Part shown: positions 2,830 through 28,339 of the stretch, in pieces
Layout of the letters: each line of letters begins with the position of its first letter
Position numbering within the stretch: the first letter of the stretch is position 1
Source: Candidatus Zixiibacteriota bacterium
Lineage (GTDB): Bacteria > Zixibacteria > MSB-5A5 > SM1-73
Direction of reading: 5' to 3'
NCBI GenBank assembly: GCA_043810415.1
Contig: JBDROD010000209.1
Location: 1 to 28,339 of the forward strand
Length of the DNA: 28,339 nucleotides
The notes under the pieces: generated by a model
Told to the model about the DNA's origin: nothing
What the model saw: only the letters and a program-made list of their open reading frames with translations
Database searches by the model: none
Translations under genes and position numbers: made by a program

Positions 2830-2856
2830 TTAAGGATTCAGAATTCCTTCCGATTC
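2830..2856 (+). promoter_or_regulatory. Putative sigma28-type promoter upstream of csrA (weaker match)
   Basis: TTAAGGAT-N11-TCCGATTC. CCGAT core and spacing match the stronger copies at 5512, 20891 and 26581. Confidence 0.4.
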
Positions 2857-2938
2857 AATTTAAGTGTAACTCATGATTCTCTTCGGCAACTTAAGAGTGG
2901 ATTTATCGGGCGTTATATGGTAATCCAAAGAGGGGGCT

Positions 2939-3271
2939 ATGCTGATATTAACCCGGAAATTGGGAGAAAGCGTTACCATCGGGGATGACATAAAGATCAC
3001 CGTTCTGGGAGTGCGCGGACGGCAGGTGCGTTTGGGAATAATCGCTCCCCAGAAAGTGACCATCCACCGAGAGGAGATATATTTCAGGATACAAGAGGAA
3101 AACAAGAGGGCGATCTTAAGTCCGCAGGAGGATGTTTCAAGGATCGCTGCAATACTGAATGAGAACCTACCGGTGCCGCTGGAGGAGGTTTCCAACTCCG
3201 ATTTTTCTGGTACAAAATCTGGAAACGAAAGAGGAATCCATAAAGGCGGCCGAGGAAAAGCAAGAGGATAG
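2939..3271 (+). CDS. csrA: Carbon storage regulator CsrA with extended C-terminus
   Basis: [49 protein letters not shown] is the CsrA signature. The IQEENKRA extension is typical of FliW-regulated CsrA. Confidence 0.96.
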
Positions 3272-3274
3272 CAT

Positions 3275-3454
3275 ATGTTTTTCAAATCTAAGAACAGAAG
3301 CAAGGGTGAGGATTTGAATCGCAAGGTAGAGAAGTTCAGGAAATGGTGGCAGGATGAGTCTCAGGATATATCCATGGATCGATCCAAATCCAAAAAGCAC
3401 AAGCCTTATCCCAAATCGTCCCATTCAAGCTTCGTATATAACGACGAAACTTAA
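3275..3454 (+). CDS. Small basic hypothetical protein, 59 aa (MFFKSKNRSKGEDLNRKVEKFRKWWQDESQ...)
   Basis: ATG 3 nt after the csrA stop, GAGGA RBS at 3264-3268, open to TAA 3452-3454. Below the apparent length cutoff of the ORF track. Confidence 0.45.
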   Translation: MFFKSKNRSKGEDLNRKVEKFRKWWQDESQDISMDRSKSKKHKPYPKSSHSSFVYNDET

Positions 3455-3631
3455 GAAATTCAAAACTTAAAGAGCAAAATTCAAAATTGATTGAAATTTT
3501 GTTTGAGTGAATACCCCATGAATGGATTCAGGAAATGGAGTTCAAGCGGTATATCTATTATCAATCACGAGGTTCTATAAAGTCCTTAGTTTAAAATTAG
3601 GTAAATCATCGAATTGCTTCAGGGGGCTAGT

Positions 3632-4108
3632 ATGAAATGCATGACTGCCAGATTCGGCGAGATAAATTTTAAAGAAGCAGAAGTAATCAATTTTCCCAAG
3701 GGGATTTTAGGCTTTTCCCAGCTTATCCGTTACGTGATCCTGGAGAAGGAGGAGATTGCTCCTTTCAAATGGATTCAATCCGTCGAAGATCCGAACGTGG
3801 CTTTTGTGATTATGAATCCGGTGCAGTTCTTTCCGAACTACAAGCTGGAGATAAACGAAAAAGAGCTGGAGGAGCTGAATTACACCAACTCGCGCGATCT
3901 GATCGCTTACGTCATAGTCAATATTCCGCAGGATATATCTTTGGCTTCCGCCGATCTTTTAGGACCCTTGGTGATAAATTCCAAGAAGAGATTGGCCAAG
4001 CAGGCGGTCATGCCGGAAAGCCCATATACTACCAGGCATTATCTAATGGACGAACTCAGGAAGCGGGAAAGGCGGAAACAACTGGACCGAAAGAAAGCTT
4101 CGGTTTAA
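3632..4108 (+). CDS. fliW: Flagellar assembly factor FliW (CsrA antagonist)
   Basis: T.RFGEI...INFPKGILGF, F.WIQSVEDPNVAFVIMNP, ADLLGPLVIN are FliW motifs. Adjacent to csrA. ATG 3632 after AGGGGG. Confidence 0.93.
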   Translation: MKCMTARFGEINFKEAEVINFPKGILGFSQLIRYVILEKEEIAPFKWIQSVEDPNVAFVIMNPVQFFPNYKLEINEKELEELNYTNSRDLIAYVIVNIPQDISLASADLLGPLVINSKKRLAKQAVMPESPYTTRHYLMDELRKRERRKQLDRKKASV

Positions 4109-4256
4109 TTTAATCCCTTTATCTCACTTAAATATTTGTGGAGAATAAAGAGTATTTGCGATATCTGCCAATAAAATTCCTATTCCTTGCTAATCCCTTC
4201 TAGGATTTCTAATCAGTTGAAGAATTAGATTAATTCAAATTTTAGGGTGAGGTCTC

Positions 4257-5375
4257 TTGCAAATCAAAGATCGTCTGGAATCAAATTCAGATATGAAAGA
4301 AAGGCTAAGGAGAATAGCCACCTTCCCTGCCTCTAAAAGCTTATCTGAATCAAACCGAAAGAATTTACTTTCGCCTTTTGAAGAAGAAAAGATCAGCCTG
4401 ATTCTGGCTGAAGTTTCAAAAGCAAGAGAAATTTATGCAATTCCTCCGACCATTGCCAGAATTTATCTTTCCTCTGCCTGCTACCATAATTGTTCCGGCT
4501 GTTCATTTGCCCACAGCCAAATTGGAGACAAGGTATTTTTAAGCTCCGACCATTTTCGAAAACTGATCGATGATTTGCCTTCCATGAATATCAAGTTGAT
4601 AGATTTGACCGGCGGAGGGGAGCCTACCCTTCATCCCCAATTTATAGATTTCGTAAAGATGTGCATGAAACAGAAATTCCAATTGGCTCTTTTGAGCAAT
4701 GGCACCTGGAATGATCCCCGGTTGATCGATATTTTGGCAGACGGATTTTCTTTCATCCGGGTGAATCTGGATGCGAGCAGCGGAGAGGTTTATGACCAGA
4801 TTCATCGCCCTCCCTTTCGGGGCGAGTTCCAAAGGATGATGAATAATCTGGAAAAGACGATCTCGGAAAGGGAGAAGAGGAAATCGGGTTTGATCATCGG
4901 AGCCAAAGTCAGGCTCAATCAAGTCAATATGAATTACGTGGAAGGGATGATCACCTTAGCCAAAGATTTGGGGCTGGATTATATCCAGTTTCAAATCAAT
5001 CAAAATGATTTGGAAGCACTTCTTCCGGAGCAGAGAAAGAATGTCAATGAAATTCTCAATGAGCTCAAATACCCGCATCATTCGCAATCAATCTATGGTG
5101 AGTTTGAAGAAAAGGAAACCGGGGATAGGTGTTGGGCTTCTAACCTGCAACTGACCATAGATTCTTCAGGTGATGTGTATTCCTGTCCTCATTTCCTGGA
5201 TCAGACGGATGCTTCCCATTTAGGCAATTTCCTCAACCAAACCATGCATGACCTATGGTTGGGTTATGATCATAAACGTAGACTCAAACCTACCAGTATG
5301 AAGGCATGTCCCGTCGAAAATTGCCGATGGCGTTTCTATGACGATGTGATCCGTGAAAGAAACAAAACAAAATAA
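4257..5375 (+). CDS. Radical SAM protein with C-terminal SPASM/twitch domain
   Basis: CYHNCSGC (CxxxCxxC), GGGEPTLHP, RVNLDAS, C-terminal CWASNLQLTIDSSGDVYSCP...C...C. TTG start after GGTGAGG. Confidence 0.9.
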   Translation: MQIKDRLESNSDMKERLRRIATFPASKSLSESNRKNLLSPFEEEKISLILAEVSKAREIYAIPPTIARIYLSSACYHNCSGCSFAHSQIGDKVFLSSDHFRKLIDDLPSMNIKLIDLTGGGEPTLHPQFIDFVKMCMKQKFQLALLSNGTWNDPRLIDILADGFSFIRVNLDASSGEVYDQIHRPPFRGEFQRMMNNLEKTISEREKRKSGLIIGAKVRLNQVNMNYVEGMITLAKDLGLDYIQFQINQNDLEALLPEQRKNVNEILNELKYPHHSQSIYGEFEEKETGDRCWASNLQLTIDSSGDVYSCPHFLDQTDASHLGNFLNQTMHDLWLGYDHKRRLKPTSMKACPVENCRWRFYDDVIRERNKTK

Positions 5376-5511
5376 TACTGCTTTCCTTGATCTTTCAATT
5401 TTCCTGCAGTTATCGACCAATCATAATATTAACGGTTTCCTAATTCCCTTAAAGTCATATCGTCATAAGATAGGTCTGCTCTCTTCATTTGATTCAGACC
5501 ATTTATACGGG

Positions 5512-5538
5512 TAAAGTTTATAGCCACAAGGTCGATAA
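5512..5538 (+). promoter_or_regulatory. Sigma28 (FliA/SigD)-type promoter upstream of flgM
   Basis: TAAAGTTT-N11-GTCGATAA versus consensus TAAAGTTT-N11-GCCGATAA (one mismatch). Confidence 0.85.
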
Positions 5539-5706
5539 AAGTAATAGAGGATGAATTATGAATTTGTTATTTGTTTGAAAGAATAGAATTTGTTTAATTC
5601 GCAGTCCAAATAAACTAAAAATAACGGTATTACCATACAAGACAACGTCTTACCTCAATCAATTTAGAATTTAGCTTGATGTGCAAAAACTTGCACAGGA
5701 GAAAAC

Positions 5707-6015
5707 GTGTACGATAACAGCGGGAAATACAGATTTGAAGAAGAGGGGAAATCCGCTTATTTCTTGTCGGGAGGTAAAGAGACAAGAAATAGGATAAACC
5801 GATTGATTCCTACAACCAAGGATACAGGGAAAAAATCTAACCATCTTCCTTCTAAAAGCAGATCAAAAAAGAGCCAGATGGCATTCAGTCCAGATCCGAT
5901 TCGGGAGGATAAAGTTAAGGCCGCAAAGATAAAAAAACAGAGAGGGGATTACAGCAGCGAGGAGGTTTACCGAAAGATTGCAGACAGGCTGATGGATTTG
6001 TTCGGAATCAAATGA
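5707..6015 (+). CDS. flgM: Anti-sigma28 factor FlgM-like protein
   Basis: Small basic, disordered N-terminus. C-terminal IREDKVKAAKIKKQRGDYSSEEVYRKIADRL matches the FlgM pattern R..KV..lK..I..G.Y....iA..l. Preceded by a sigma28 promoter. Confidence 0.78.
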   Translation: MYDNSGKYRFEEEGKSAYFLSGGKETRNRINRLIPTTKDTGKKSNHLPSKSRSKKSQMAFSPDPIREDKVKAAKIKKQRGDYSSEEVYRKIADRLMDLFGIK

Positions 6016-6261
6016 TACATCGATCCAGCGGAGAGCCGATTAATTGCCGGATGCTCAGAAAATCCTGATATATCACTCAAATTAGAGCTATACCATAAAT
6101 TTTAGTGGGTTATAAAATCATTCATACCATTCCGCCAAAAGCGGAAAAGATTTCATTCTGGATTCTCGCAAACTTCTCCGTCTAATCCACACAGAAAAAG
6201 GCTGTCTGATCTGCTTATCCCGTCCGTATAAAACTTTTACTTCAAGCAGTTCAATTACATC

Positions 6262-6290
6262 TTGACAATGAAAGTGTATGAGAATATATT
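6262..6290 (+). promoter_or_regulatory. Sigma70-type promoter for the tRNA-Val/thrS operon
   Basis: TTGACA-N17-TATATT. Confidence 0.8.
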
Positions 6291-6332
6291 TACCTAGCTC
6301 TTTAGTATTTGTTAGGTTATGGGTGAAAAATT

Positions 6333-6475
6333 GAAGGTATAAGATCAAGGATTGATGGGCGATTAGCTCAGATGGTTAGAGTATCCCGCCGATGGCGGGA
6401 GGGTCGCATATTAGGTGATAGGTGGAAGGTATAAGATAAAGGATTGATGGGCGATTAGCTCAGATGGTTAGAGTA
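6333..6475 (+). repeat. Tandem direct repeat, 51-nt units at 6333-6383 and 6425-6475 (one mismatch), covering the tRNA leader and 5' half
   Basis: GAAGGTATAAGAT(C/A)AAGGATTGATGGGCGATTAGCTCAGATGGTTAGAGTA occurs twice, 92 nt apart. Confidence 0.95.
6357..6407 (+). pseudogene. Truncated tRNA copy (acceptor 5' strand and D arm of tRNA-Val, replaced anticodon arm, no T arm or 3' acceptor)
   Basis: Identical to tRNA-Val through the D arm, then a 17-nt hairpin TCCCGCCGATGGCGGGA, then GGGTCGC. No TTCGA T-loop and no CCA. Confidence 0.75.
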
Positions 6476-6525
6476 CTTGCTTGACATGCAAGGGGTCACT
6501 GGTTCGATTCCAGTATCGCCCACCA
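6449..6525 (+). tRNA. tRNA-Val(GAC)
   Basis: Acceptor GGGCGAT/ATCGCCC, D arm GCTC/GAGT, anticodon stem CTTGC/GCAAG with loop TTGACAT (GAC at 6483-6485), T arm CTGG-TTCGATT-CCAG, encoded CCA. Confidence 0.97.
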
Positions 6526-6568
6526 TATTAGATAACAAAAAGATTAAACAGCATACAGTAAACATAAG

Positions 6569-8494
6569 ATGAAAAACAAAATTACAGTTGTCTTTTCGGA
6601 CGGATCAAAGAGGGAATATCCAGCCGGTTTAACAGTCGCTGAGATATTGCGGGAATTCAAGCCGGAATTATCCCAAACTGCCTTGGCTGCAATTTCAGAT
6701 GGTCGAATGGTCGACCTGTCAGAAAAAGTGGTTGAGGATAGTCAAATCAGGATAATCACCTTCGATTCCAAAGAAGGGAAAGAGTTATTCTGGCACAGCA
6801 CCTCGCATATCATGGCTCAGGCGGTGCAGGATATTTTCCCCGGGGCGAAACTGGATATCGGCCCCTCTGTCGAGGATGGATTCTATTATGATTTCGATAC
6901 CCCCAAAACGTTCGAGCCGGAGGATTTGGTCAAAATCGAAAGGAGGATGGCGGAGATCGTAAAGGAGAATCATCCTTTCATCCGAAGAGAGGTTTCCAAG
7001 AAAGAAGCGGTGGAGTTGTTCCAGCAAAAAGGAGAGAAATTCAAAGTAGCAAGGCTTTCCGAGATGGAAGAGGAAAAGGTGTCTTTATATCAGCACGACG
7101 ATTTCGTGGACCTTTGCCGGGGTCCACACGTTCCGTCCACCGGCATGATCAAAAGCTTCAAACTCCTCAGCATCGCCGGAGCTTACTGGAAAGGCTCGGA
7201 GAAGAATCCGATGCTCCAGCGCATTTACGGAATTTCCTTCCCCTCCCTGAAGGAGATGGAGGAATACTTAAAGAGACTGGAGGAGATGAAGAAGAGTGAT
7301 CACCGGGTGCTGGGGAAAGAGCTGGAGCTTTTTTCCATATCGGATGAAGTAGGTCCCGGGCTGGTGTTGTGGCATCCCAAGGGAGCCATCGTTCGAAGGC
7401 TCATCGAGGATTTTTGGATAACCGAACATCAGAAGAACGGATACCAGCTGATCTATACCCCCCACGTAGCCCGGCTTCATTTATGGGAGACCAGCGGACA
7501 CACCGGATTCTACCGGGAGAACATGTATTCCACCATGAAGGTGGAGGATGAGGAATACCAGATCAAACCGATGAACTGTCCCTTTCACATTCTCATCTAT
7601 AAATCCAAGCTGAGGAGCTACCGGGAGCTTCCTTTGAGGCTGGCGGAACTGGGGGCTTGTTACCGCTATGAGCGATCGGGCGTTTTGCACGGGCTTATGC
7701 GGGTGAGAGGTTTCACCATGGACGATGCCCACATCTTCTGCAAACTGGAACAGCTGGAGGAGGAGGTTATCCAGCTTTTAAAATTCTCCATCTGGATGCT
7801 CAAGACTTTGGGTTTCGAGAAACTGCAGATTTTCTTATCCACGCGCCCGGATAAAGCCATAGGGGAAGAACAAAACTGGGAAAAAGCCACCGCTGCTTTA
7901 AGTCAGGCTCTGGAGAAGGAGAATTTAGAGTTCGAGGTGGATAAAGGGGGAGGTGCGTTCTACGGTCCCAAGATAGACATAAAAATCATCGACGTCATGG
8001 GGAGGCCCTGGCAGTGCACCACCATCCAGTTCGATTTCAACATCCCCGAAAGGTTCGATCTGTGGTACGTGGGAGCGGATGGAAACTATCACCGCCCGAT
8101 CATGATTCACCGGGCGCTTTTGGGCTCGCTGGAGCGTTTCTTTGGCGTGTTGATAGAACATTACGGCGGTGCGTTTCCCTTGTGGCTCTCTCCGGTTCAA
8201 ATTCGACTGATGCCCATCACGAACGAGCAGAACTCCCCTGCGGGTGAAATGCTGGAGAAGCTGCGGGAAGAAGGTTTCCGGGTGGAATTGGACGATCGAA
8301 ATGAGAAGATAAATTTCAAAATAAGAGAGGCGGAGAAAGAGAAAATTCCGTATATGTTCATAATAGGGAAGAAAGAGGTTGCGGAAAATAACGTTTCGGT
8401 ACGAAAGCACAAAGGGGGGGATATAGGTAAATTCAGCTTAGACCAGTTCATCTTGAGGTTAAAGGACGAAGTGAAAAAGAAAGTTACAGAATGA
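6569..8494 (+). CDS. thrS: Threonine--tRNA ligase
   Basis: TGS domain, FWHSTSH editing motif, DLCRGPHV, DHRVLG, KPMNCPFH, RVRGFTMDDAH, GAFYGPKID, HRALLGSLERF. Confidence 0.99.
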   Translation: MKNKITVVFSDGSKREYPAGLTVAEILREFKPELSQTALAAISDGRMVDLSEKVVEDSQIRIITFDSKEGKELFWHSTSHIMAQAVQDIFPGAKLDIGPSVEDGFYYDFDTPKTFEPEDLVKIERRMAEIVKENHPFIRREVSKKEAVELFQQKGEKFKVARLSEMEEEKVSLYQHDDFVDLCRGPHVPSTGMIKSFKLLSIAGAYWKGSEKNPMLQRIYGISFPSLKEMEEYLKRLEEMKKSDHRVLGKELELFSISDEVGPGLVLWHPKGAIVRRLIEDFWITEHQKNGYQLIYTPHVARLHLWETSGHTGFYRENMYSTMKVEDEEYQIKPMNCPFHILIYKSKLRSYRELPLRLAELGACYRYERSGVLHGLMRVRGFTMDDAHIFCKLEQLEEEVIQLLKFSIWMLKTLGFEKLQIFLSTRPDKAIGEEQNWEKATAALSQALEKENLEFEVDKGGGAFYGPKIDIKIIDVMGRPWQCTTIQFDFNIPERFDLWYVGADGNYHRPIMIHRALLGSLERFFGVLIEHYGGAFPLWLSPVQIRLMPITNEQNSPAGEMLEKLREEGFRVELDDRNEKINFKIREAEKEKIPYMFIIGKKEVAENNVSVRKHKGGDIGKFSLDQFILRLKDEVKKKVTE

Positions 8495-8619
8495 AATAAA
8501 AAAGCTGGAGTGGTCAAATTTGGCTGTAGGCAATCGGGATTTGACTCCACCTGTTATCACGAATCACGCTGAAACTTGATGCTCCAGAAAAGATATCGCC
8601 AATAAGGAGGTGAAGAGCA

Positions 8620-9183
8620 ATAAAGCCTAAGGAGATCAGGGTAAACCAGAGGATTCGTTTTTCCCAGGTGAGAGTTATCGGGGAAAGCGGAGAGCAGATA
8701 GGAATCATGGCTACCCGAGATGCTATTCGTATGGCATCCGAGAAGGGGTTTGATTTGGTTGAGGTTTCGCCCCAAGCCAGACCACCCGTCTGTAAGATCA
8801 TGGATTATGGTAAATACAAATACGAGCTGACCAAAAAGGCGAAAGATGCCAAGAAGAAACAACGCCAGTTTCAGCTTAAAGAGATGCGTTTCCGGCCCAA
8901 AACAGAGGAACACGATTATACCTTCAAGATGAGACACCTGCGGGAGTTTTTGACCCAAGGGAATAAAGTTAAGGTGCTGGTTGAATTCCGTGGTCGGGAA
9001 AAAGCACATATCGAGTTTGGTCATAAAATACTGGATAAGCTGAAAGCCGACCTCTCGGATGTCGGAGAACCCATAGCCAGACCGCTGATGGAGGGAAGAA
9101 AACTAACCTTGAATTTTATTCCCAAGTCATCGGAGAAGAGCCCGGCTGTACCCAAAAGCCCTCAAAGTGAGCAGACCCAATAG
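8620..9183 (+). CDS. infC: Translation initiation factor IF-3 (non-canonical ATA start)
   Basis: PPVCKIMDYGKYKYE, KEMRFRPKTEEHDY. AAGGAGGTG SD precedes ATA at 8620, which opens the in-frame IKPKEIRVNQRIR. In-frame TGA at 8611 bounds the start. Confidence 0.95.
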   Translation: MKPKEIRVNQRIRFSQVRVIGESGEQIGIMATRDAIRMASEKGFDLVEVSPQARPPVCKIMDYGKYKYELTKKAKDAKKKQRQFQLKEMRFRPKTEEHDYTFKMRHLREFLTQGNKVKVLVEFRGREKAHIEFGHKILDKLKADLSDVGEPIARPLMEGRKLTLNFIPKSSEKSPAVPKSPQSEQTQ

Positions 9184-9359
9184 AAGGATGAGAAGGCAAT
9201 AGATGATAGTTGGGTGAAGGGATATTCAAAGCGAGCATCTATCTTATCGATAAGCGGGTAATTCGTTTAGCGATTTACTTAAGCAACGTATTATCAGCAA
9301 ATTGATGTTGTCTTTTAACGTATAGTATCAAGCGAAAAAGGAAGACGGAGGTTAATTAA

Positions 9360-9554
9360 TTGCCTAAGATAAAAACCAACAGAGCCGCAGCCAAGCGATT
9401 CAGAAAGACCGGCAGCGGGAAAATCAAAAGAAGCAAAGCGTTCCGCAAACACCTTTTGGGAAAGAAGAGCGCCAAGAGAAAAAGGAGTTTAAGGAAAGCC
9501 GGACTAGTGGATAAAGCCGATCAGGCCAGAATAAAGAGACTACTGGTAATTTAA
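9360..9554 (+). CDS. rpmI: 50S ribosomal protein L35
   Basis: [27 protein letters not shown] start after GGAGG. Confidence 0.98.
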
Positions 9555-9565
9555 GGAGGAATTTA

Positions 9566-9925
9566 ATGCCCAGAGCAACCAATGCAGTCGCTTCCCGAGC
9601 ACGGAGAAAGAAGATATTGAAAGCCGCCCGGGGGAATTATCAGGGAAGAAGAAAACTATATCGCACCGCCAAAGAGACGGTACAAAAGGGGATGACCTAT
9701 GCCTATGCTCACCGGAGATTAAGGAAGAGAGATTTTCGCAGACTCTGGATTGCCCGGATCAATGCTGCGGCCAGATTATATGGTTTATCCTATAGCCTTT
9801 TTATCAGCGGATTGAAGAAGGCGGGTGTGGTTTTGGACCGGAAGATTTTGGCCGATATGGCGGTCAAAGATAAAGAGGGTTTTGCCAAATTAGCCGAGTT
9901 GGTTTCCAAAGAGAAAGCCGGTTAA
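9566..9925 (+). CDS. rplT: 50S ribosomal protein L20
   Basis: [46 protein letters not shown]. Confidence 0.99.
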
Positions 9926-19036: not shown

Positions 19037-19063
19037 TAAAGAAATCCAAGATTTTCCCGATTA
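19037..19063 (+). promoter_or_regulatory. Putative sigma28-type promoter upstream of the DUF4388 gene
   Basis: TAAA-N15-CCCGATTA (TAAAG -35, 6/8 match at -10). Confidence 0.55.
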
Positions 19064-19136
19064 TAAGTCTATGGGTGATAACGGATATTTCTATAAGTGC
19101 ATCCAGGTCATCAAACGATAAAATCGTGAGTCCACT

Positions 19137-20339
19137 TTGAGCGTAAGCATCAAAACAAAAGAGGTCGGGCTAACCGGAAATCTTAGCACGGTTTCCCTGT
19201 CGGATCTGCTTCAGCTGATCAGCGTATCCGGGAAGACAGGTATGCTGGTCATCTCCAGGGAAAGCCAAAAAAGGGAGATATACTTCAAAAAAGGGGACAT
19301 CATTTACGCCACCTCTATGGGAAGCGAAGATGAGCTTTTGGGAAATCTACTTTTGTCCCAAAGAAAGATCCTGAAGCCGGATTTGGAAAAGGCTTTAAGC
19401 CTGCAGAAACTGACCAATAAGAGGCTGGGGGACATCCTTTATGAGATGAGAACCTTAACCCGAGACGAGGTGATCGAATGTCTCCAGGTTCAGATCGAGG
19501 AAATCATTTACAGTCTATTCGGGTGGAACTCAGGCGAGTTCGTGTTCTATGACGGTAAACTGCCTCACTCCGAACAGATAACCACCCAGCTTGGTACCAT
19601 GAACGTGATCATGGAGGGGAGCAGACGAATCGACGAATGGACCCAGATCAAGGAGACCTTCCCTTCGGATAGTATAGAGCTGTGGGTGATCAGAAACCCC
19701 AAGATAAAGTCGACTTTGGTCAAAATAAGCGTTGACGAGCTGCAACTGCTCCCGTTAATCTCCGGGAACAGAACCATCTCCGAGCTGTTGTCGGTAAGCC
19801 CCTTAAGAGAGTTTCATACTTACAAAGCCCTGTATAATTTGTACAACTCAGGATGGGTAGAAAAGGGGGAGAAGAAAAAAGCCAAGATGCAGGAATTCGA
19901 CGGGGAGAAGCTGATCCATGACGTGCTGATCAAACTGTATTCCCAGTCTTATCAGACCATAGAGAGATTTGTCTCTCAAAAGCTGGGGGAGGGTGCCAAG
20001 ACGGTTCTGACCAGGTGTTTTGAGGTTCAAAAATCTTATAACCCCATCTTGGCCAAGCTGGAAAGCTCCGATAATTTTTTGGATTTTCGCCATCTGAGAA
20101 GCTCTATCGACAAGATGCCCCAGGCGATTCGATTTCATAAACTGACCAGCGCGCTCAACGATCTGCTCTACGAATTCATGAGAGAGATCAACCGGGATTT
20201 AGGCAAAAATGTCACCATGCAAGTGGTATCCCAGATAAAAAAGGATACGGCTCAGGTGGTGGCAGAAAACAGATGGGTGGCAAAGGAATATGAGTTGGAG
20301 GAAGAGATACTAAAAACTTTAAAACAGGGTCAAAGATGA
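19137..20339 (+). CDS. DUF4388 (PatA-N-like) domain protein with MshEN-like repeat
   Basis: LTGNLSTVSLSDLLQLISVSGKTGML.I..ESQKREIYFKKGDIIYA is the DUF4388 pattern. LLGNLLL...LEKAL.LQ...RLGDIL is MshEN-like. NVIMEGSRRIDEW. Confidence 0.85.
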   Translation: MSVSIKTKEVGLTGNLSTVSLSDLLQLISVSGKTGMLVISRESQKREIYFKKGDIIYATSMGSEDELLGNLLLSQRKILKPDLEKALSLQKLTNKRLGDILYEMRTLTRDEVIECLQVQIEEIIYSLFGWNSGEFVFYDGKLPHSEQITTQLGTMNVIMEGSRRIDEWTQIKETFPSDSIELWVIRNPKIKSTLVKISVDELQLLPLISGNRTISELLSVSPLREFHTYKALYNLYNSGWVEKGEKKKAKMQEFDGEKLIHDVLIKLYSQSYQTIERFVSQKLGEGAKTVLTRCFEVQKSYNPILAKLESSDNFLDFRHLRSSIDKMPQAIRFHKLTSALNDLLYEFMREINRDLGKNVTMQVVSQIKKDTAQVVAENRWVAKEYELEEEILKTLKQGQR

Positions 20340-20776
20340 TGATAAAAGAACACCACACTTGCATTTCCAAAAGAGTGAAAAGGATAATAACCGTCTACCT
20401 CTCTACAGGGCTGGTATTATGGGTTGGTCGTATGGCTTTCGCTTTGCCCGAAAGCGAAAATTATCAAGCGGAAATGGGATGGTTTTCATCCAAACCAGCA
20501 TGGTTCACCCTTCTGGATATCCTGCTTCTGATGGGCATTCTCACCTGCTTTTTCATATCGGTAAAGGTTAAATCATTCCTGAGGGATGGGGAGTTAGCAT
20601 CAGGCTGGACCCTCTTTTCCCTCTCCTTCGTTCTTCTCTTCATCGCCCAGCTCCTCAGTTTGTCGCTTAATATTAATCTTTTCAATATACCCTTAAGCCT
20701 AGTCTCCATAATCCGTCTTCTGTCTATCTTTACGTTGGCCTCAGGCATCTATTTTATGAAAAGGGTGTTGAGTTGA
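20336..20776 (+). CDS. Hypothetical membrane protein (signal-like N-terminus plus about 3 TM helices)
   Basis: ATGA overlap with the upstream stop. Hydrophobic segments WFTLLDILLLMGILTCFFISV, GWTLFSLSFVLLFIAQLLSL, LVSIIRLLSIFTLASGIYFM. Confidence 0.75.
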   Translation: MMIKEHHTCISKRVKRIITVYLSTGLVLWVGRMAFALPESENYQAEMGWFSSKPAWFTLLDILLLMGILTCFFISVKVKSFLRDGELASGWTLFSLSFVLLFIAQLLSLSLNINLFNIPLSLVSIIRLLSIFTLASGIYFMKRVLS

Positions 20777-20890: not shown

Positions 20891-20918
20891 TTAAGTATAA
20901 CGATTTGACTGTCGATAA
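20891..20918 (+). promoter_or_regulatory. Sigma28-type promoter upstream of the roadblock-Mgl operon
   Basis: TTAAGTAT-N12-GTCGATAA (TAAG-N15-GTCGATAA). Confidence 0.7.
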
Positions 20919-21091: not shown

Positions 21092-21928
21092 ATGTGTCCA
21101 ACTATAGCCATAGAGCTAGACGAAAGAATCGAAAAGTGTGAAAGGATATTGTCGGAAAACCCCGAATCTCTGATATTTGCGGCTCTATCCGATGCCTATC
21201 GCAAGAAGGGGGACCTATCCAAAGCGTTTCATGTCTGTAGCCGGGGGCTTAAGATACATTCGGAGTATGGTCCCGGTCATCTGGTGATGGCAAAGATCAA
21301 TTTCGAAAGGGGAATGTACAGCGAAGCGGAAAAGGAGCTTTACTTAGCCATCAAGTCGGACGGAAAGACCCGGACATCTGAACTTCTTTTGGCTCATATC
21401 TTGTACAAAAAGAATCAGATTAAGGAAGCCAAGAATATACTGGAAGAACTCAAAGCGACCGATCCGGATAACCAAACGATAAACGAGCTTTTAAACGCCA
21501 TTCGGCAAGGCGGTGAGGCGGAAAAAAACTATTACGACACCATAGCGGTCGAGGAGCGGTGGAACATAGAGAAGATTTCGGATCTCAAAGAGGCGGTGGG
21601 TTATTTGAAATCGCTGCCGGGGATACTGGGGGTAATGGTGATCGGGGAGGAGGGATTGATCCGGGAAAGCAAGTTGAATCCCAAGTTCAAGAAAGAACTG
21701 CTGGGGGCTACGGTTATCGACATCACCCAAAGCGCGGATGAGGGATTAACCGGTATAGACTTAGGAAAGTTGGAGCGGATCGCGATAGAGGGACAAAATC
21801 TTGAACTATGGATAACCCGCTTTGATCACCAGACCCTGGTACTGTGCTGCTCTGCCGATGCCAATCTGGGTGCTTTGAAGGTAAGGGTATGGGAGATACT
21901 GGAACAGCTATCTCTGAACATTGGATGA
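21092..21928 (+). CDS. TPR-repeat protein with C-terminal roadblock/LC7 domain
   Basis: FAALSDAYRKKGDL..A...C..GL..H..Y..GHLVMAKI TPR units. C-terminal LKSLPGILGVMVIGEEGLI...ANLGALKV roadblock pattern. Confidence 0.82.
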   Translation: MCPTIAIELDERIEKCERILSENPESLIFAALSDAYRKKGDLSKAFHVCSRGLKIHSEYGPGHLVMAKINFERGMYSEAEKELYLAIKSDGKTRTSELLLAHILYKKNQIKEAKNILEELKATDPDNQTINELLNAIRQGGEAEKNYYDTIAVEERWNIEKISDLKEAVGYLKSLPGILGVMVIGEEGLIRESKLNPKFKKELLGATVIDITQSADEGLTGIDLGKLERIAIEGQNLELWITRFDHQTLVLCCSADANLGALKVRVWEILEQLSLNIG

Positions 21929-21940
21929 TAAGGGGGAGAG

Positions 21941-22870
21941 GTGAATTCAGGATTCAAAGGAGAACTAAAAGGAATACTTTTGGTCTCTTTTTTTATCATG
22001 GTGGTCCCGCTGATTTTCTTCCCCTGGGATTTTGGGCTGAGATGGGATTTTTCCCTCTTATTACATATGCTGATTGAAATATTCTGGTATGTTTTAATAC
22101 TAACCGCCATCCTCTATAGACCATCTATTAAACAGGTTTTGACCGGTACAGTTTTGACTTTCACTTATCGGGTGATTTTGGGGGCTGGATTTGCGGTTCT
22201 TCTGAGGATCATGCTGTCAGAATCATGGTCCGTTGCAATCATGTCGGGTATGTATGGGTATACCCCGGCTTTTCTGCTTCAGGTTTTAATGTCACCCTTT
22301 GTAATCAAGTCATTTGGTGGAGGTTCTATGAAAAAGAAGTTGAAAACCGAACAGGAGCTTTATCCGCAAGAGAGGAAAATACAGAATGCCTATTCTCCTT
22401 ACCCCCCGGAGAGGATTTTCAATGAAAAATCGACGGGGAGAGGATTCTTAACCGGAGAAAAGGATTTGAAATCATGCCGGGTGGACAATCTGGAAAGCAT
22501 TCTGCATTACCTCAAGGAGTATTCTGGAGTGAAAGCCGCCATTCTGGTGGATGAGGAGGGCTTGGTGATAGCTTATGATGCTTCTTCCGATCAGGACGTG
22601 GAGAAGGTGGCTTCTTATGCCCGATGTTTGAAGGAGGCTAATGACCAGGTATTGGGGAAGATAGGGGAACAAACCTCAGAGCGGATCAACATTCACACCC
22701 CCTCTTTGTGGATCTGCTTAAACCGGATAGGCCGATTTCTGCTGGTGGTGGCGGCGGATCATAACACGGACGAATTGCTCTCGGTAAGGATTATGCAGTC
22801 ACTGGCTACGATAAAGAGATATATCCAAGAAAGATACCAGGAAAATATACTAAAAGAAGTGGAGGGGTGA
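21941..22870 (+). CDS. Membrane protein (about 4 TM) with C-terminal roadblock/LC7 domain
   Basis: Hydrophobic N-terminal 120 aa, then LKEYSGVKAAILVDEEGLVIA roadblock signature. GTG start. Confidence 0.82.
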   Translation: MNSGFKGELKGILLVSFFIMVVPLIFFPWDFGLRWDFSLLLHMLIEIFWYVLILTAILYRPSIKQVLTGTVLTFTYRVILGAGFAVLLRIMLSESWSVAIMSGMYGYTPAFLLQVLMSPFVIKSFGGGSMKKKLKTEQELYPQERKIQNAYSPYPPERIFNEKSTGRGFLTGEKDLKSCRVDNLESILHYLKEYSGVKAAILVDEEGLVIAYDASSDQDVEKVASYARCLKEANDQVLGKIGEQTSERINIHTPSLWICLNRIGRFLLVVAADHNTDELLSVRIMQSLATIKRYIQERYQENILKEVEG

Positions 22871-22871
22871 T

Positions 22872-23213
22872 ATGTTCCAGATATTGGAGGAGTTGAACAA
22901 GACCGTCGGAATAAATGGCAGCATGATCGTGGGAAAAGACGGGATCGTTATCGCTGCCGATTTGAATGCTAATCTCCAGGACGAGGCGGTGGGGGCTTTA
23001 GCCGCTTCCATAGTGGACACGGTGAAAAAGTCGATGGAGCGTCTTTCCAATGAGAATTTAAGACAGATAACCGTGGAGGCGAGCAAAGGGAAGCTGTTTT
23101 TGACGGATGTGGGGATAGGCATTCTGGCGGTCACCACCGATCCGCAGGTGAACGTGGGGTTGGTCCGCCTGGAGATCAAGAATGCGGCAGAAAAAATAAA
23201 GATTGCCCAGTAG
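22872..23213 (+). CDS. Stand-alone roadblock/LC7 (MglB/MglC-like) protein
   Basis: LNKTVGINGSMIVGKDGIVIA, EAVGALAASI, NVGLVRLEIK. Confidence 0.88.
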   Translation: MFQILEELNKTVGINGSMIVGKDGIVIAADLNANLQDEAVGALAASIVDTVKKSMERLSNENLRQITVEASKGKLFLTDVGIGILAVTTDPQVNVGLVRLEIKNAAEKIKIAQ

Positions 23214-23255
23214 CCCGCTTAATAATGACCGTTGGCCGTTTGGGGGAGGGAGAAG

Positions 23256-24227
23256 ATGGCATCCATAAATTATGCCTTCAAGGAGATATCGTGTAAGATC
23301 GTTTATTACGGTCCGGGGCTTTCCGGCAAGACCACCAACCTTCAATATGTGCATCAGAAGATCCCCCCTCAGACCAGAGGGGATCTGATCTCTTTGGCTA
23401 CCGATCAGGACAGGACCCTTTACTTCGATTTCCTTCCGGTGAACATCGGGAAGGTGCACGGCTTTTCCACGAAGTTTCAGCTCTATACCGTACCGGGACA
23501 GGTTTACTACAATGCCACGCGGAAGCTGGTTCTGCGGGGAGTGGATGGCTTGGTCTTCGTTGCAGATTCCCAGAAATCCAAAATGGATGAAAACCTGGAA
23601 AGCTATCAGAATTTACTGGATAATCTGGCGGAGTACGGGTATAACCTGGATAAGCTTCCCCTGGTGCTACAATATAACAAAAGGGACCTAACCCCCATAA
23701 TCTCGCTGGAAGAGCTGCAGAAGGCTTTGAATCCTCACCAGTTCCCTTATTATGAGGCAGTAGCCATCCGGGGAGTGGGTGTTTTCGATACTTTGAAATG
23801 CATCAGCAAGATGGTTTTAGACCAGGCCAAGCGCAAGCAGCTGTTTCCGCAAAGAGAGGCGGAGGAAAAGGATTCGGTACTTTCTCCGGTAGCCCTTTCC
23901 CAGACACCCTCAGGCGAGTCAATGGTCGATATGATCGGTTCAACCGCTCCGGCAGAAGGGATGCCGGATACGACAGCAACAGCTGTAGCGGAGGAGGAAC
24001 CGGTATCGGCTGAGGAAAAGATTTTCCCCGAACCAGTAACTATTCCAGAAGAATCAAAACCGGAAGTTGAGCTCAAGATAAAAGAAATGACCGAGGAAAA
24101 TCAAGAGAAGATGGAAATGCCGATCGCTGCATCGAGTCCGACCATAATAAGCTGGTCCGCAGGTAAAAAGACCCGGTCAAAGGGTTTCTTTTTATGGCGA
24201 TTTCTCGGCAGAATATTCAACCGGTAA
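23256..24227 (+). CDS. mglA: MglA-family small GTPase with about 120-aa C-terminal extension
   Basis: INY..KEI.CKIVYYGPGLSGKTTNLQY, DRTLYFDFLP (catalytic Arg), LYTVPGQVYY (catalytic Gln), GVDGLVFVADS, QYNKRD. ATG 23256 after GGAGGG. Confidence 0.95.
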   Translation: MASINYAFKEISCKIVYYGPGLSGKTTNLQYVHQKIPPQTRGDLISLATDQDRTLYFDFLPVNIGKVHGFSTKFQLYTVPGQVYYNATRKLVLRGVDGLVFVADSQKSKMDENLESYQNLLDNLAEYGYNLDKLPLVLQYNKRDLTPIISLEELQKALNPHQFPYYEAVAIRGVGVFDTLKCISKMVLDQAKRKQLFPQREAEEKDSVLSPVALSQTPSGESMVDMIGSTAPAEGMPDTTATAVAEEEPVSAEEKIFPEPVTIPEESKPEVELKIKEMTEENQEKMEMPIAASSPTIISWSAGKKTRSKGFFLWRFLGRIFNR

Positions 24228-24247
24228 AATCAAGCGGAGGTGTGAAA

Positions 24248-24754
24248 TTGAGACAGGACGATTTAGTGATTTATGAAGAACAGATAGAGGATATAGAAAG
24301 AACGCTGAGGCGGTTGATCAAGGATGCACAGGCCAAATGCGTTCTGCTGGTGGACAAGGATGGTCATTTGATCACCCGACAGGGTTTCACCCAGTCCTTG
24401 GACACCACTGCCTTGGCCGCCCTTTTGGCGGGGAGCTTTGCCTCCACCCAGGAGATCGCCCGGCTGGTGGGAGAGCCGGAGTTTTCGGTGCTCTTTCATC
24501 AAGGGAAAAAGGATCACATTCACATCACCTTGGTAGGGGAACGATCCATCTTGGCGGTGATCTTTGATGACCGCACCACCATCGGTATGGTCCGGCTGTA
24601 TGCTAAAGAGATTGCGGAGGATTTAAACCAGATCCTCTCCTCGGAAAAGCAAGAGGAAAGCCAATCGAAAAATGAGCCGGGAACGGAAGTGGATACGGAA
24701 TTTTCCGCTACGGTGGAGACCAGACTGGACGACATCTTTTCCGATAAATACTAA
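24248..24754 (+). CDS. mglB: MglB GTPase-activating protein (roadblock)
   Basis: LVIYEE, AKCVLLVDKDGHLI, DTTALAALLAG, F...FHQG.KD, LAVIFDDRTTIGMVRL and acidic tail LDDIFS parallel Myxococcus MglB. TTG 24248 is 7 nt after GGAGG. Confidence 0.93.
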   Translation: MRQDDLVIYEEQIEDIERTLRRLIKDAQAKCVLLVDKDGHLITRQGFTQSLDTTALAALLAGSFASTQEIARLVGEPEFSVLFHQGKKDHIHITLVGERSILAVIFDDRTTIGMVRLYAKEIAEDLNQILSSEKQEESQSKNEPGTEVDTEFSATVETRLDDIFSDKY

Positions 24755-24840
24755 ACCGATAGCGGCAAAAGGGTTTGGACTATTCTAAATCGGCTAGCGG
24801 ATTACCATTAAAAGGACGGAGTATATTCGGGTAAAAACTT

Positions 24841-26536
24841 ATGTCACGTGAATTGGGAGACATGCTGGTCAAGGCAGGCAAGATATCGGAAGAACAGCTT
24901 GGTCGGGCTTTGGACCTGCAGAAGAGAAGCGATGAAAAGTTGGGAAACATTCTGATCAGGATGGGGATCATCGCCAATGAAGACGAGCTGTCCGAGTTCA
25001 TCGGGCGTCAGCTGAACATCGGAGCCTTGAGGCTTACCGACATTGAGTTGAATCCGGAGGTGGTGAAGATGATCCCGATGGACATCGCCCGGAAGTTCAA
25101 CGTCATCGCCATAGGTAAGCTGGGCAAAACCCTGATCGTAGCCATTTCCGATCCCAACAACATCTACGTGCTGGATGCGGTGAAGTTCATTACCGGATGC
25201 GCGGTACAACCGGTGATCAGTCCGGAGAAGGCCATCCAGAAAGCCATAGATAACTATTATCGTGACGCTGCCGGGATCACCGAGATACTCAAGGGGATGA
25301 AGGAAGGGGATCTGGAGGTGATTGGTGAAAGTGAGGAGGCGCTTACTGAACAAGATTTAAGGTCTCAGGTTCAGGACAAACCCTTGGTCAAGCTGGTAGA
25401 TTCCATCATTGCCGATGCCATACGCCGAGGATGCTCGGATATTCACATAGAAACCTACGAGAAAAAGATCCGGGTCAGATACAGGTTGGATGGGGATCTG
25501 CAGGAGATGTCGCCCCTGCCTTTCAAGTATCGTGCCGCCATCGTTTCCCGGGTGAAGATCATGGCGGATCTGGACATCTCGGAGAGAAGGCTGCCCCAGG
25601 ACGGCAGAATAAAGGTCAAATTCGGAGACCGGGCTGTGGATCTGCGGGTTTCGGTGCTTCCCACTATTTTTGGGGAGAAGGTGGTAATGCGGATATTGGA
25701 TCCCAGGAGCGTCAATGTGGATCTGACGAAACTGGGATTTGCGGAGGCCTCTTTGGCTGAATTCGATAAAGCCATCCATCTGCCTTACGGCATGATCCTG
25801 GTAACCGGTCCCACCGGAAGCGGAAAAACCACCACCTTATATTCTGCCTTAAAGCAGATCAATACGACGGATATCAATATCATGACCGCAGAGGATCCGG
25901 TGGAGTTCAATTTTGAAGGGATAAATCAGGTGGCGGTGAAAAGCGAGATCGGTTTGACCTTCGCCTCGGCCTTGAGATCGTTCTTAAGGCAGGACCCGGA
26001 CGTGGTCATGGTGGGGGGAGATAAGAGACGGTGAGACCGCGGAGATCGCAGTGAGAGCGGCCTTAACCGGACACCTGGTCTTTTCCACCCTGCATACCAA
26101 CGATGCCCCCAGCACCATAGACCGATTGATCGATATGGGCATCCCCAGCTATCTGGTGGCTTCCTGCGTCAGACTGGTTATGGCCCAGAGGATGGTGCGC
26201 AAGGTCTGTACCAATTGCCGGGAGGAGATAAAACTCCCCTCCGAGACTTTACAGATACTGGGGCTGACAGAAGACGAGGTCAAAGACACCAAGATATACG
26301 CCGCCAAAGGATGTAACGAATGTAATAGTACAGGTTATTCAGGAAGGACCGGTATTTTCGAGGTAATGCCCATGAGTCAAGCTATTGAAAGGATGATCTT
26401 AGCTAAAGCCTCCAATATGGACATACGACAGCAAGCCATCGCAGAGGGGATGCTTACCCTGCGGACCGCCGCACTGGGAAAATTGAAAAATGGAGTCACC
26501 ACGGTTGCAGAAGTTATGGCGGTAACGGCATTATAA
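24841..26536 (+). pseudogene. pilB: Type IV pilus assembly ATPase PilB, interrupted by a +1 frameshift (extra G in run 26013-26018)
   Basis: ORF 24841-26034 has the MshEN N-terminus, ERRLPQDGR and Walker A GPTGSGKT. Removing one G restores [23 protein letters not shown] into ORF 26051-26536 (STLHTN, CxxC/CxxC, GRTGIFEV), giving 564 aa. Confidence 0.9.
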
Positions 26537-26580
26537 ACGCAAGATGATAGATCAATTTAAATAAATCTGTCTGGACCGAT

Positions 26581-26607
26581 TTAAGTATCAATCGGCGTAG
26601 TCGATAA
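26581..26607 (+). promoter_or_regulatory. Sigma28-type promoter upstream of pilT
   Basis: TTAAGTAT-N11-GTCGATAA, 56 nt before the pilT ATG. Confidence 0.72.
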
Positions 26608-26663
26608 TATAAGAAGAAACACGTTTTCTTATGATTTAAATATAGAATAAACTGGAGCAAAAG

Positions 26664-27758
26664 ATGGTTACCTTGAGAGAACTTTTGGAGTTAATGGTGA
26701 AGAAGAATGCTTCCGATTTGCATCTGACTACCGGATCACCACCCCAATTGAGGGTGGACGGGAAATTAATCAAGACCGAATGCGATATACTGAACCCAGA
26801 GGATACCAAGAAGCTGGCTTACAGCATAATGAACGAAAAGCAAAAACAGAAGTTTGAGGAGAAAAGTGAGCTGGATTTGTCCTTCGGCATTGAACATCTC
26901 AGCCGCTTCAGATGCAATGTTTTTATGCAGAGGGGAAATGTGGCGGTAGCTTTAAGGCAGATTCCTTTCCACATCCCCAGCTTCGAAGAGTTGGGGGTCC
27001 CTAAAGTTGTAGCGGATCAGGCCAATTTACCCAGGGGTTTGGTGCTGGTAACTGGACCCACTGGTAGTGGAAAATCTACCACCTTAGCAGCATTGATCAA
27101 CAAGATCAATCAGGAAAGGCACTGTCATATTCTGACGGTCGAGGATCCCATCGAATATCTTCACCGGCACAATTCCTCCTTGATCAACCAGCGGGAGGTA
27201 TATGCCGACACCTCCTCTTTCGGCAGTGCTTTGAAATATGCCTTAAGAGAGGATCCGGACGTGGTGATGATAGGAGAGATGAGAGACTTAGAGACCATGG
27301 AATCCACCTTGAATATCTCCGAGACCGGGCATCTGGCTTTTGCCACACTGCACACCAACTCCTGTGCCGAATCGATCAACCGGATAATCGACGTTTTCCC
27401 CAACAACCAGCAGGAACAGGTACGGGTGACCGTTTCCTTCGTCCTTCAGGCGGTGATCAGTCAACAACTGATTCCCAAGATAGGTGGGGGACGGGTTTTG
27501 GCTTTGGAGGTCATGATCTGCACCCCGGCAATAAGGGCTCTTATCCGGGACGATAAAATACACCAAATCTACAGCTTGATGCAGGCCGGACAGAAATACG
27601 GGATGAGGACCATGAATCAATCTTTGGCAGAACTTTATCTTAAACATAAAATCACTTTGGGCGATACTCTGGGCAGAAGCTCCAATATTCAGGAACTTAA
27701 TGAGCTTTTGGCCAGGAAAGCGGAGATAGGACAACGGAGTCATGCAATGAAGGTATAG
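26664..27758 (+). CDS. pilT: Type IV pilus retraction ATPase PilT
   Basis: ASDLHL, GPTGSGKSTTLA, TVEDPIEY, ALREDPDVVMIGEMRD, ETGHL..ATLHTNS, AIRALIR (AIRNLIRE-like motif), GM.TMNQSL. Confidence 0.97.
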   Translation: MVTLRELLELMVKKNASDLHLTTGSPPQLRVDGKLIKTECDILNPEDTKKLAYSIMNEKQKQKFEEKSELDLSFGIEHLSRFRCNVFMQRGNVAVALRQIPFHIPSFEELGVPKVVADQANLPRGLVLVTGPTGSGKSTTLAALINKINQERHCHILTVEDPIEYLHRHNSSLINQREVYADTSSFGSALKYALREDPDVVMIGEMRDLETMESTLNISETGHLAFATLHTNSCAESINRIIDVFPNNQQEQVRVTVSFVLQAVISQQLIPKIGGGRVLALEVMICTPAIRALIRDDKIHQIYSLMQAGQKYGMRTMNQSLAELYLKHKITLGDTLGRSSNIQELNELLARKAEIGQRSHAMKV

Positions 27759-27895
27759 GGATTAGTCTGAGTAAACCGGAAGTATCAGGTTAAACACGAT
27801 GATTCTTTACCGGTGATATGAATTTCATTAACCGTCTTTGATCCGGTTCTACCAGGTTCGGAGTTGTTGTTTTCAGTAAAAGGAAGGAGGTTGCC

Positions 27896-28339
27896 TTGCC
27901 AGTTTTCACATACAAGGGAAAAACGCTGACCGGTACTCAGGTAGCAGGGGAGTTAAAAGTAAAAGATCGTGCGGAACTGGAAAGGATCTTGAGGAGCAAA
28001 AAGATATTGGTTTCCCAGGTGGCCACCAAGCCCTCTCAGATAAGCCTAAGAATTGGCACCGGAATCAAGAAAGTGCACATCTCCCGCTTCACCCGGCAAT
28101 TTGCCACCATGATCACCGCAGGGCTGCCCATGGTTCAGTGTCTGGAGATATTAGCCCAGCAGATGGAATCAGCCAACTTGAGAAAGATAGTCGGGGAGAT
28201 CAAAGAGAGCGTGCAAGCAGGAACCACCTTAGCTGAAGCTTTGTCTAAGCACAAGAAGGTGTTTGACGACCTGTTCGTAAACATGGTGGATGCAGGTGAA
28301 ATAGGGGGAGCTTTGGACGTCATATTGTTGAGGCTAGCC
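27896..28339 (+). CDS. pilC: Type IV pilus inner-membrane platform protein PilC (5' partial, runs off the window)
   Basis: TTG after AGGAGG gives MPVFTYKGK...FTRQFATMITAGLPMVQCLEIL...GTTLAEALSKH.KVF..LFVNMV.AGE.GG.L. Not in the ORF track because there is no stop in the window. Confidence 0.95.
   Translation, partial: MPVFTYKGKTLTGTQVAGELKVKDRAELERILRSKKILVSQVATKPSQISLRIGTGIKKVHISRFTRQFATMITAGLPMVQCLEILAQQMESANLRKIVGEIKESVQAGTTLAEALSKHKKVFDDLFVNMVDAGEIGGALDVILLRLA

Follow-up and report, generated by a model that had tools for sequence, protein, structure and literature searches.

The stretch of DNA analysed here (the window, 28,339 nucleotides (nt)) is an entire contig, G000:C209, of a Candidatus Zixiibacteriota metagenome-assembled genome (MAG; 2.46 Mb, 447 contigs, 86.7% complete), and it raises the question of what csrA, fliW and a gene for an FlgM-like anti-sigma factor do in a neighbourhood of mgl polarity genes and type IV pilus genes. 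A preliminary description, made from the sequence alone, had listed these regulators in the company of no flagellar structural gene, and profile searches of the window bore this out. It had also suggested that the pilus and polarity genes were placed under the regulators of the flagellar checkpoint, either together with flagella or after their loss. We compared the window and its genome with 40 relatives (genome counts are out of 41) and favour the following answer, to which we assign a probability of about 0.72: the family descended from flagellated ancestors, lost the flagellum and kept FliA (sigma-28), FlgM, FliW and CsrA, and FliA drives flgM, the roadblock-mglA-mglB operon (mgl operon), pilT and weaker targets under restraint by FlgM.

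Sigma-28-type sites and the factor predicted to read them

Searching the window with the strict pattern T(A/T)AAG-N14/15-G(T/C)CGATAA we found exactly three matches, before flgM, the mgl operon and pilT, all of them intergenic and on the forward strand, which is the coding strand, against mean expectations of 0.01 and 0.00 in dinucleotide-preserving shuffles. This confirms the shared sigma-28-like promoter that had been described at these three places, and the weaker copies reported before csrA and the DUF4388 gene are present as well (Table 1). The canonical sigma-28 consensus, as generally known, is TAAAGTTT-N11-GCCGATAA, and the window element TAAAGTTT-N11-GTCGATAA equals it. On the forward strand of the three intergenic regions before flgM, the TPR-roadblock gene and pilT no sigma-70-like site was seen.

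Before the orthologous genes of the relatives the motif is conserved across the family or the order for flgM, the mgl operon, pilT and the DUF4388 gene. Of the 25 orthologous pilT loci compared in the order, 24 have the strict motif with 0 mismatches, 59-99 nt ahead of the start codon, and its -10 box is 0.99 identical among genomes, compared with 0.58 for the spacer and 0.56 for the downstream DNA. The mgl-operon promoter was found with 0-1 mismatch in 27 of 29 orthologous loci (all of families f1, that of the window, and f2), the encoded protein being 44-64% identical, and in an alignment of the upstream DNA from the 19 genomes of family f1 the sole invariant blocks are a T-tract, GTTAAG (-35), TGTCGATAA (-10) and the ribosome-binding site. 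All 27 orthologous flgM loci carry the motif with at most two mismatches, in the form T(A/T/C)AAGTTT-N11/12-G(T/A)CGATA(N), which by its sequence is the textbook extended sigma-28 consensus. The variant site of the DUF4388 gene, TTAAG-N14/15-(C/T)CCGAT(T/C)A, is present in 11/11 relatives from family f1 at -95 to -102. Conservation before csrA is patchy, the variant TTAAGG-N14/15-(A/T)CCGATTC being kept within the genus and in some of f1 (positions -107 to -133), and two genomes of family f4 have a near-consensus TTAAG-N15-ATCGATAA there (at -126 and -129). In flagellated relatives the same boxes precede a large flagellin gene, exactly in G035 and with one mismatch in G038 and G036, which connects the motif with FliA in the class.

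A genome-wide search for a sigma-28-family gene, proposed in the preliminary description, yielded one, a FliA/WhiG gene at G000:C95 encoding 252 amino acids (aa) and scoring 267.8 bits with TIGR02479 (cut-off 189.6). Two outcomes that would have spoken against the preliminary description, a genome devoid of a sigma-28-family gene and motifs that are not kept before orthologs, thus did not occur. Ten sigma genes were detected with Sigma70_r2 in this genome, the other nine being one truncated RpoD and eight of the extracytoplasmic function (ECF) type. FliA exceeds the TIGR02479 cut-off in 38 of the 41 genomes, with scores of 260-280 bits, and the other non-ECF sigma factors in the relatives are RpoD/RpoS-like and not sigma-28 paralogs. 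In G001, a congeneric genome that is 95% complete, the whole locus is syntenic, with fliA some 3 kb upstream of the histidine-kinase gene, the order being PilQ-like secretin, TPR gene, fliA, a 491-aa unknown, PilZ gene, GAF gene, kinase, receiver, a gene resembling those of methyl-accepting chemotaxis proteins, csrA, fliW, DJ-1, flgM and thrS, followed further on by mgl and pilBTC. The secretin gene is located just upstream of fliA (G001:C48, 17695-19068, reverse strand) and the PilZ-domain gene two genes downstream, placing fliA itself in a pilus-related neighbourhood. Autoregulation of fliA is not claimed; a TAAAG-N15-GGCGATAA site lies about 115 nt before the gene in the window's own genome, but G001 lacks it.

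Sigma-28-like sites are also kept at other loci of the genome. Two further candidate members of the regulon are an SPFH and double-zinc-ribbon protein (site kept in G000:C194:3574-4766 and G001:C19) and a CarboxypepD_reg-PEGA-TPR protein (G000:C368 and G023:C1:193408). A TAAAG-N15-GCCGATAA site is conserved in G000:C42:1-2400, G001:C46 and G002:C28, where it is followed after about 330 nt by a strong sigma-70-type promoter, TTGACA-N17-TATATT, and then by a long conserved leader; the downstream 481-aa open reading frame (ORF) had no match in Pfam, nor had the locus in Rfam.

Flagellar genes and late regulators in the class

Profile searches with Flagellin_N, Flagellin_C, FHIPEP (FlhA), Flg_bb_rod and FliG_C, run as the genome-wide check that the preliminary description had called for, gave no match in the genome, which is 86.7% complete. 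None of the 19 genomes of family f1, which include 95-98% complete ones and one in a single contig, yielded FlhA, flagellin or rod proteins, and neither did any of the four genomes of family f4, whereas 6 of 7 genomes belonging to other orders of the class have all three. This distribution indicates that the flagellum was lost within the order while the late regulators stayed. In the flagellated relatives fliA is found beside flhA, and fliW between the genes for a hook-associated protein and flagellin; fliW is kept in 34 of the 41 genomes, non-flagellated ones included. FlgM-like genes, located in every case within a few kb of fliA, turned up in the two families without flagella.

Immediately upstream of fliA, two genera of family f2 (g8 and g9) encode FliP, a shortened FlhB (265 aa, aligned to positions 1-239 of the 335 in the profile) and FlhA, and a distance of a few kb separates these genes from fliW and flgM (G029:C3:104473-119408, also G025, G027, G031 and G033). 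No rod proteins and no flagellin were found in these two genera, and judged by gene content their FliP-FlhB-FlhA set is a relic consisting of the export gate only.

The adjacent genes for CsrA and FliW are conserved as a pair in the relatives. In family f1 CsrA measures 108-112 aa and ends in a basic C-terminal tail of low complexity (about 45 aa in the window), as against 80-89 aa in families f2 and f4. Between fliW and flgM the window has a radical-SAM/SPASM gene (4257-5375), in the place of which G001 carries a DJ-1/PfpI gene. Flagellin, as the partner that titrates FliW or as target of CsrA, is missing, as Flagellin_N has no match in the window's own genome and flagellin was found in 0/19 genomes of the family. 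A Flagellin_C relic in the role of FliW partner was considered and rejected, none being present in the five genomes G000, G001, G002, G006 and G023. Beyond the neighbourhood and the weak promoter before csrA no link of CsrA/FliW to pili or polarity was seen.

Pfam FlgM is matched by 13 of 21 orthologs of the FlgM-like protein at E<=0.01 (best 3.4e-5) and is the only family that they match. Conservation is limited to the C-terminal 45 residues, which follow the pattern IR-EKV-EAK...G-Y...EVY-KIA-RL. A model of the FlgM-FliA complex scored 0.72 in three runs, compared with 0.00 for the best control, with FlgM 65-101 placed on FliA 185-246 (region 4); of 80 solved complexes 55 attain the mark applied, as do 3 of 110 mismatched pairs. 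The model supports binding of the FlgM C-terminus to region 4 of FliA, and its score may reflect likeness to the solved sigma-28/FlgM complex.

The flgM leader (5539-5706) holds several conserved elements. In the window and the f1 orthologs TAATAGAGGA is conserved directly after the -10 box, an inverted repeat TGTGCAA-N4-TTGCACA adjoining the AGGAG ribosome-binding site is conserved in f1, and two GGA boxes, one at the 5' end of the leader and the other at the ribosome-binding site, are positioned as in known CsrA-repressed leaders. From their sequence these elements are possible candidates for CsrA sites or for a protein operator. A structured RNA was rejected for this leader, as its fold z-score of 0.35 is not significant, and the hairpin before the flgM ribosome-binding site is kept in sequence without covariation or clear compensatory changes.

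The proposed circuit, the points against it and rival explanations

In the circuit that we infer, including its dependence on FliA, its operon limits and the mechanism and signal of FlgM, the family lost the flagellum and retained FliA, FlgM and the FliW-CsrA pair. RNA polymerase with FliA would read near-canonical sites composed of TAAAG or TTAAG, 14-15 nt and GTCGATAA. FliA would thereby transcribe flgM, giving negative feedback; the operon of three roadblock genes, the Ras-like polarity GTPase MglA and its predicted GTPase-activating protein MglB, possibly with pilB; and pilT, the retraction ATPase gene, probably with pilC. The weaker variant promoters would add csrA and the DUF4388 gene with its cyclic di-GMP (c-di-GMP) motif. 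The conserved C-terminus of FlgM is predicted to wrap around sigma region 4 and to keep FliA inactive. FlhA, and with it the gate for FlgM export, was found neither in the window's own genome nor in the 19 family members, so FlgM would have to be removed by a route other than secretion through the hook-basal body, most likely by regulated proteolysis as in Legionella oakridgensis.

Several observations weigh against this reading. The fliA gene is located on a contig other than that of the window, in a MAG only 87% complete. The FlgM-like protein, at 20.2 bits, stays under the gathering score of 25 of Pfam PF04316 and has no NCBIfam match; no PDB sequence match was obtained, also when a profile of the FlgM orthologs was used, and the FlgM fold in the complex model is uncertain, with a predicted local distance difference test (pLDDT) value of about 50. 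The genome-wide motif scan that had been proposed gave a divided result. In the window's own genome 6 strict matches stand against about 0.8 expected and 6/6 are intergenic, and with a loosened pattern 14 of 26 matches fall into the roughly 14% of the genome that is intergenic, but in the relatives the strict motif barely exceeds the reversed-pattern control (6 v 5, 3 v 2, 4 v 3, 6 v 3 and 2 v 1). Since these counts are only modestly above the control, the regulon is likely to be small and the pattern by itself is not diagnostic; as the genome-wide enrichment in the relatives is marginal, the argument rests on orthologous conservation. Control of the pilin by sigma-28 was rejected, as a signature search yielded seven prepilin-like ORFs (contigs C314, C338 and C430), none of which is preceded by the motif within 300 nt at up to two mismatches, and a clear major pilin was not found. 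X20, the sole RNA run with the locus (7% of sampled words), gave contigs on the stretch of the operon and none on pilT; these contigs are short and lack 5' ends, and contaminating DNA is a possible source of them.

The phylogenetic range of the promoters also bears on the reading. Neither the flagellated out-groups nor two genomes of family f4 yielded the mgl-operon promoter, and as far as a fragmentary contig shows it is also missing from G021, a flagellated member of the order; seen only in the non-flagellated families f1 and f2 it looks like a gain in that lineage and not like an inheritance. Degenerate sites occupy the corresponding position before pilT in three of five flagellated out-group genomes (TCAAG-N14-GACGATAA, TTCAG-N15-GCCGATAT and an GTCGATAT box with a poor -35 element), and the pilT promoter, present order-wide, may therefore be older than the flagellar loss. 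The choice originally offered between co-regulation with flagella and recruitment after their loss thus does not have a single outcome, recruitment after the loss fitting the mgl operon but not necessarily pilT.

We consider it unlikely that another factor, an ECF sigma or a DNA-binding regulator, reads the bipartite element while FliA has different targets or no targets. Candidates for such a role are the eight ECF-type sigma genes, and the strict pattern is only modestly enriched genome-wide. However, the element equals the canonical sigma-28 consensus and is found before flagellin genes in flagellated relatives. The distance between its boxes stays at 14/15 nt although the letters of the spacer change, as is usual for a sigma factor but not for an operator, and the element stands before flgM, the arrangement of known sigma-28 systems (PMC5655016).

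The regulator genes and promoters might instead be functionless relics decaying after a recent flagellar loss, a view to which the loss inside the order, the sister genera with an orphan FliP-FlhB-FlhA gate and the weak, variable site before csrA lend themselves. Decay is very improbable given that the ORFs are intact and FliA still scores 260-280 bits in 38 of 41 genomes, that the promoter boxes stay unchanged, for pilT throughout the order and for the mgl operon while the protein encoded downstream is 44-64% identical, and that the mgl-operon promoter looks gained in families that are not flagellated. That the organism is flagellated and merely co-regulates its pili with late flagellar genes is hardly credible, for although the MAG is incomplete and split into 447 contigs, other orders of the class are flagellated and degenerate sites precede pilT in three of five flagellated out-group genomes, a flagellate has about 40 such genes in several clusters, and neither the five flagellar families in the own genome nor FlhA, flagellin and rod proteins in 19 family genomes, several of them 95-98% complete and one in a single contig, gave a match.

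Retention of FliA and FlgM after loss of the flagellum, with pilus and polarity genes as targets, accordingly remains our preferred reading, and its sigma-28/FlgM half is well supported by the sequence comparisons. The preliminary description had placed pili and polarity under the flagellar checkpoint regulators as a whole; the sigma-28/FlgM part of this idea is well supported, but the CsrA/FliW part and the term checkpoint are not supported. In a family lacking the flagellar export gate a secretion checkpoint cannot work as in flagellates. A doubtful extension would be a pilus checkpoint, in which FliW has a new partner other than flagellin, CsrA gates translation of flgM, and release of FlgM is tied to pilus assembly or surface contact instead of hook completion, setting MglA polarity and PilT retraction; the sister genera that have only FliP, FlhB and FlhA would then be an intermediate still exporting FlgM through a naked gate.

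If the preferred reading holds, a regulatory circuit can outlive the machine that it served, and the class would offer a phylogenetically resolved example of regulatory exaptation: it holds flagellated, export-gate-only and flagellar-structure-free lineages, all of which keep FliA and most of which keep FliW. This raises the questions how FlgM is released without a hook, which partner FliW has without flagellin, and in what way transcription controls MglA polarity outside Myxococcus. For annotation it is a warning that fliA, flgM, fliW and csrA do not imply flagellar motility.

Gene content and comparison with known systems

ORFs and profile searches place nearly every gene of the window on the forward strand. 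The 5' part contains a GAF histidine kinase, csrA, fliW, the radical-SAM/SPASM gene and the FlgM-like gene; thrS-infC-rpmI-rplT-pheST, zapB, zapA, rny, ymdB, folD and a DUF2250 gene follow in the middle, and the 3' part holds the DUF4388 gene, a 146-aa ORF, the TPR-roadblock gene, two roadblock genes, mglA, mglB, pilB, pilT and the start of pilC (Table 1). By its sequence the MglA of the window is a true MglA, and it has a C-terminal extension of about 130 aa past a core of 193 residues that can be aligned with Myxococcus MglA. The PilB, PilT and PilC homologs, with their T2SSE, MshEN and T2SSF matches, form a clustered type IVa pilus motor. The pilB gene is split by one extra G in the G-run 26011-26017; this G is missing from contigs of related strains in two DNA runs (at about half the depth in X1) and pilB of G001 is in a single frame. 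The probable source of the extra G is a mistake in the assembly or variation between strains.

Table 1. Genes and predicted sigma-28-type sites of the window, in order of position
Feature	Position	Strand	Details
Weak sigma-28-like site before csrA	2830-2856	+	TTAAG-N14-TCCGATTC
csrA	2939-3271	+	110 aa; Pfam CsrA 87 bits; NCBIfam CsrA 102.5 bits (cut-off 73)
fliW	3614-4108	+	Pfam FliW 127 bits; NCBIfam NF009793 130.2 bits (cut-off 130)
Sigma-28-type promoter of flgM (predicted)	5512-5538	+	TAAAGTTT-N11-GTCGATAA; 168 nt before gene
FlgM-like anti-sigma factor gene	5707-6015	+	102 aa; Pfam FlgM 20.2 bits (cut-off 25)
Variant sigma-28-like site before DUF4388 gene	19037-19063	+	TAAAG-N14-CCCGATTA
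DUF4388 gene, MshEN-type c-di-GMP motif	19137-20339	+	Pfam DUF4388 118.8 bits; NCBIfam c-di-GMP motif 43.8 (cut-off 38)
146-aa ORF overlapping DUF4388 gene	20336-20776	+	
Sigma-28-type promoter of roadblock-mglA-mglB operon (predicted)	20891-20918	+	TTAAG-N15-GTCGATAA; 173 nt before TPR-roadblock
Roadblock-mglA-mglB operon	21092-24754	+	Gaps of 12 nt, 1 nt and 18 nt, then 34-nt overlap
TPR-roadblock gene	21092-21928	+	Pfam Robl_LC7
Roadblock gene, 309 aa	21941-22870	+	Pfam Robl_LC7
Roadblock gene, 113 aa	22872-23213	+	Pfam Robl_LC7
mglA, 331 aa	23232-24227	+	E 1.4e-79 to M. xanthus MglA, residues 9-201
mglB, 186 aa	24194-24754	+	Pfam Robl_LC7 55 bits; NCBIfam MglB 96 bits (below equivalog cut-off 200)
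pilB	24841-26536	+	Frameshifted into two halves; Pfam T2SSE and MshEN on the halves
Sigma-28-type promoter of pilT (predicted)	26581-26607	+	TTAAG-N14-GTCGATAA; 56 nt before gene
pilT	26664-27758	+	Pfam T2SSE
pilC start	27896-28339, off contig end	+	Pfam T2SSF

Sigma-28-family factors serving a non-flagellar programme in a non-flagellated bacterium, as proposed here, are known from other bacteria. In Chlamydia, which is non-flagellated, sigma-28 serves late developmental genes. Streptomyces WhiG serves sporulation, with the anti-sigma factor RsiG and c-di-GMP (PMC12871210). Unlike the system described here, these two use other anti-sigma factors and other targets, and FlgM, FliW, CsrA or a link to pili are not known to be part of them. 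The window's genome shares its four regulator families with Bacillus subtilis, where SigD/FlgM and the Hag-FliW-CsrA partner switch both depend on flagellar export and flagellin, which are absent here. The FliW-CsrA switch also has a version in C. jejuni (PMC4894983).

The polarity module resembles that of Myxococcus xanthus (PDB 6h17, 5ymx) in its aligned MglA core, its roadblock-type MglB partner and its position beside type IV pilus genes. It differs from it in the order, mglA preceding mglB, in three additional roadblock proteins, of which one is a fusion with TPR repeats, in the extension of MglA and in the sigma-28-type promoter.

Flagellar genes have also been co-opted for type IV pili in the non-flagellated Lysobacter enzymogenes OH11, where an export-apparatus relic of FlhA, FlhB, FliI and FliR controls twitching motility (PMC7277350). 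There export parts act at the protein level, whereas the link proposed here would be transcriptional, via sigma-28 promoters, and the export gate is lost, being kept only in the sister genera g8 and g9.

The preliminary description knew of no described circuit of this form. The circuit does have precedents, in Legionella oakridgensis FliA/FlgM and the Bdellovibrio FliA-Tad pilus connection; our literature search found no paper tying sigma-28 to MglA/MglB or pilT and none on motility regulation in Zixibacteria. In Bdellovibrio bacteriovorus the attack-phase regulon of FliA includes the operon of the Tad (type IVb) pilus, as a heterologous reporter in E. coli has shown, and the type IVa pilA was reported not to be regulated by FliA (PMC5430801). 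The flagellar sigma factor is extended to pilus genes in both cases, but Bdellovibrio is flagellated and uses Tad/Flp pili, whereas the targets predicted here, in the absence of a flagellum, are a type IVa retraction ATPase and an Mgl module, known from sequence. The non-flagellated L. oakridgensis, according to a review that covers Tlapak et al. 2017, kept only FliA and FlgM, both of them functional, flgM being sigma-28-dependent and FlgM probably degraded instead of exported (PMC5655016). Loss of the flagellar regulon, retention of FliA/FlgM and control of FlgM without a basal body are thus features that both would share. FliW and CsrA, however, are kept here in addition, the arrangement spans a family or order of an uncultured phylum, and its conserved targets would be pilT, the MglA/MglB-roadblock operon and the DUF4388 gene, pilus or polarity targets of the Legionella pair not being mentioned in that review (PMC5655016). 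What appears to be new, judging from the genomes compared, is a sigma-28/FlgM pair that survived flagellar loss with conserved type IV pilus and Mgl targets, in a class in which the loss is visible as a stepwise series.

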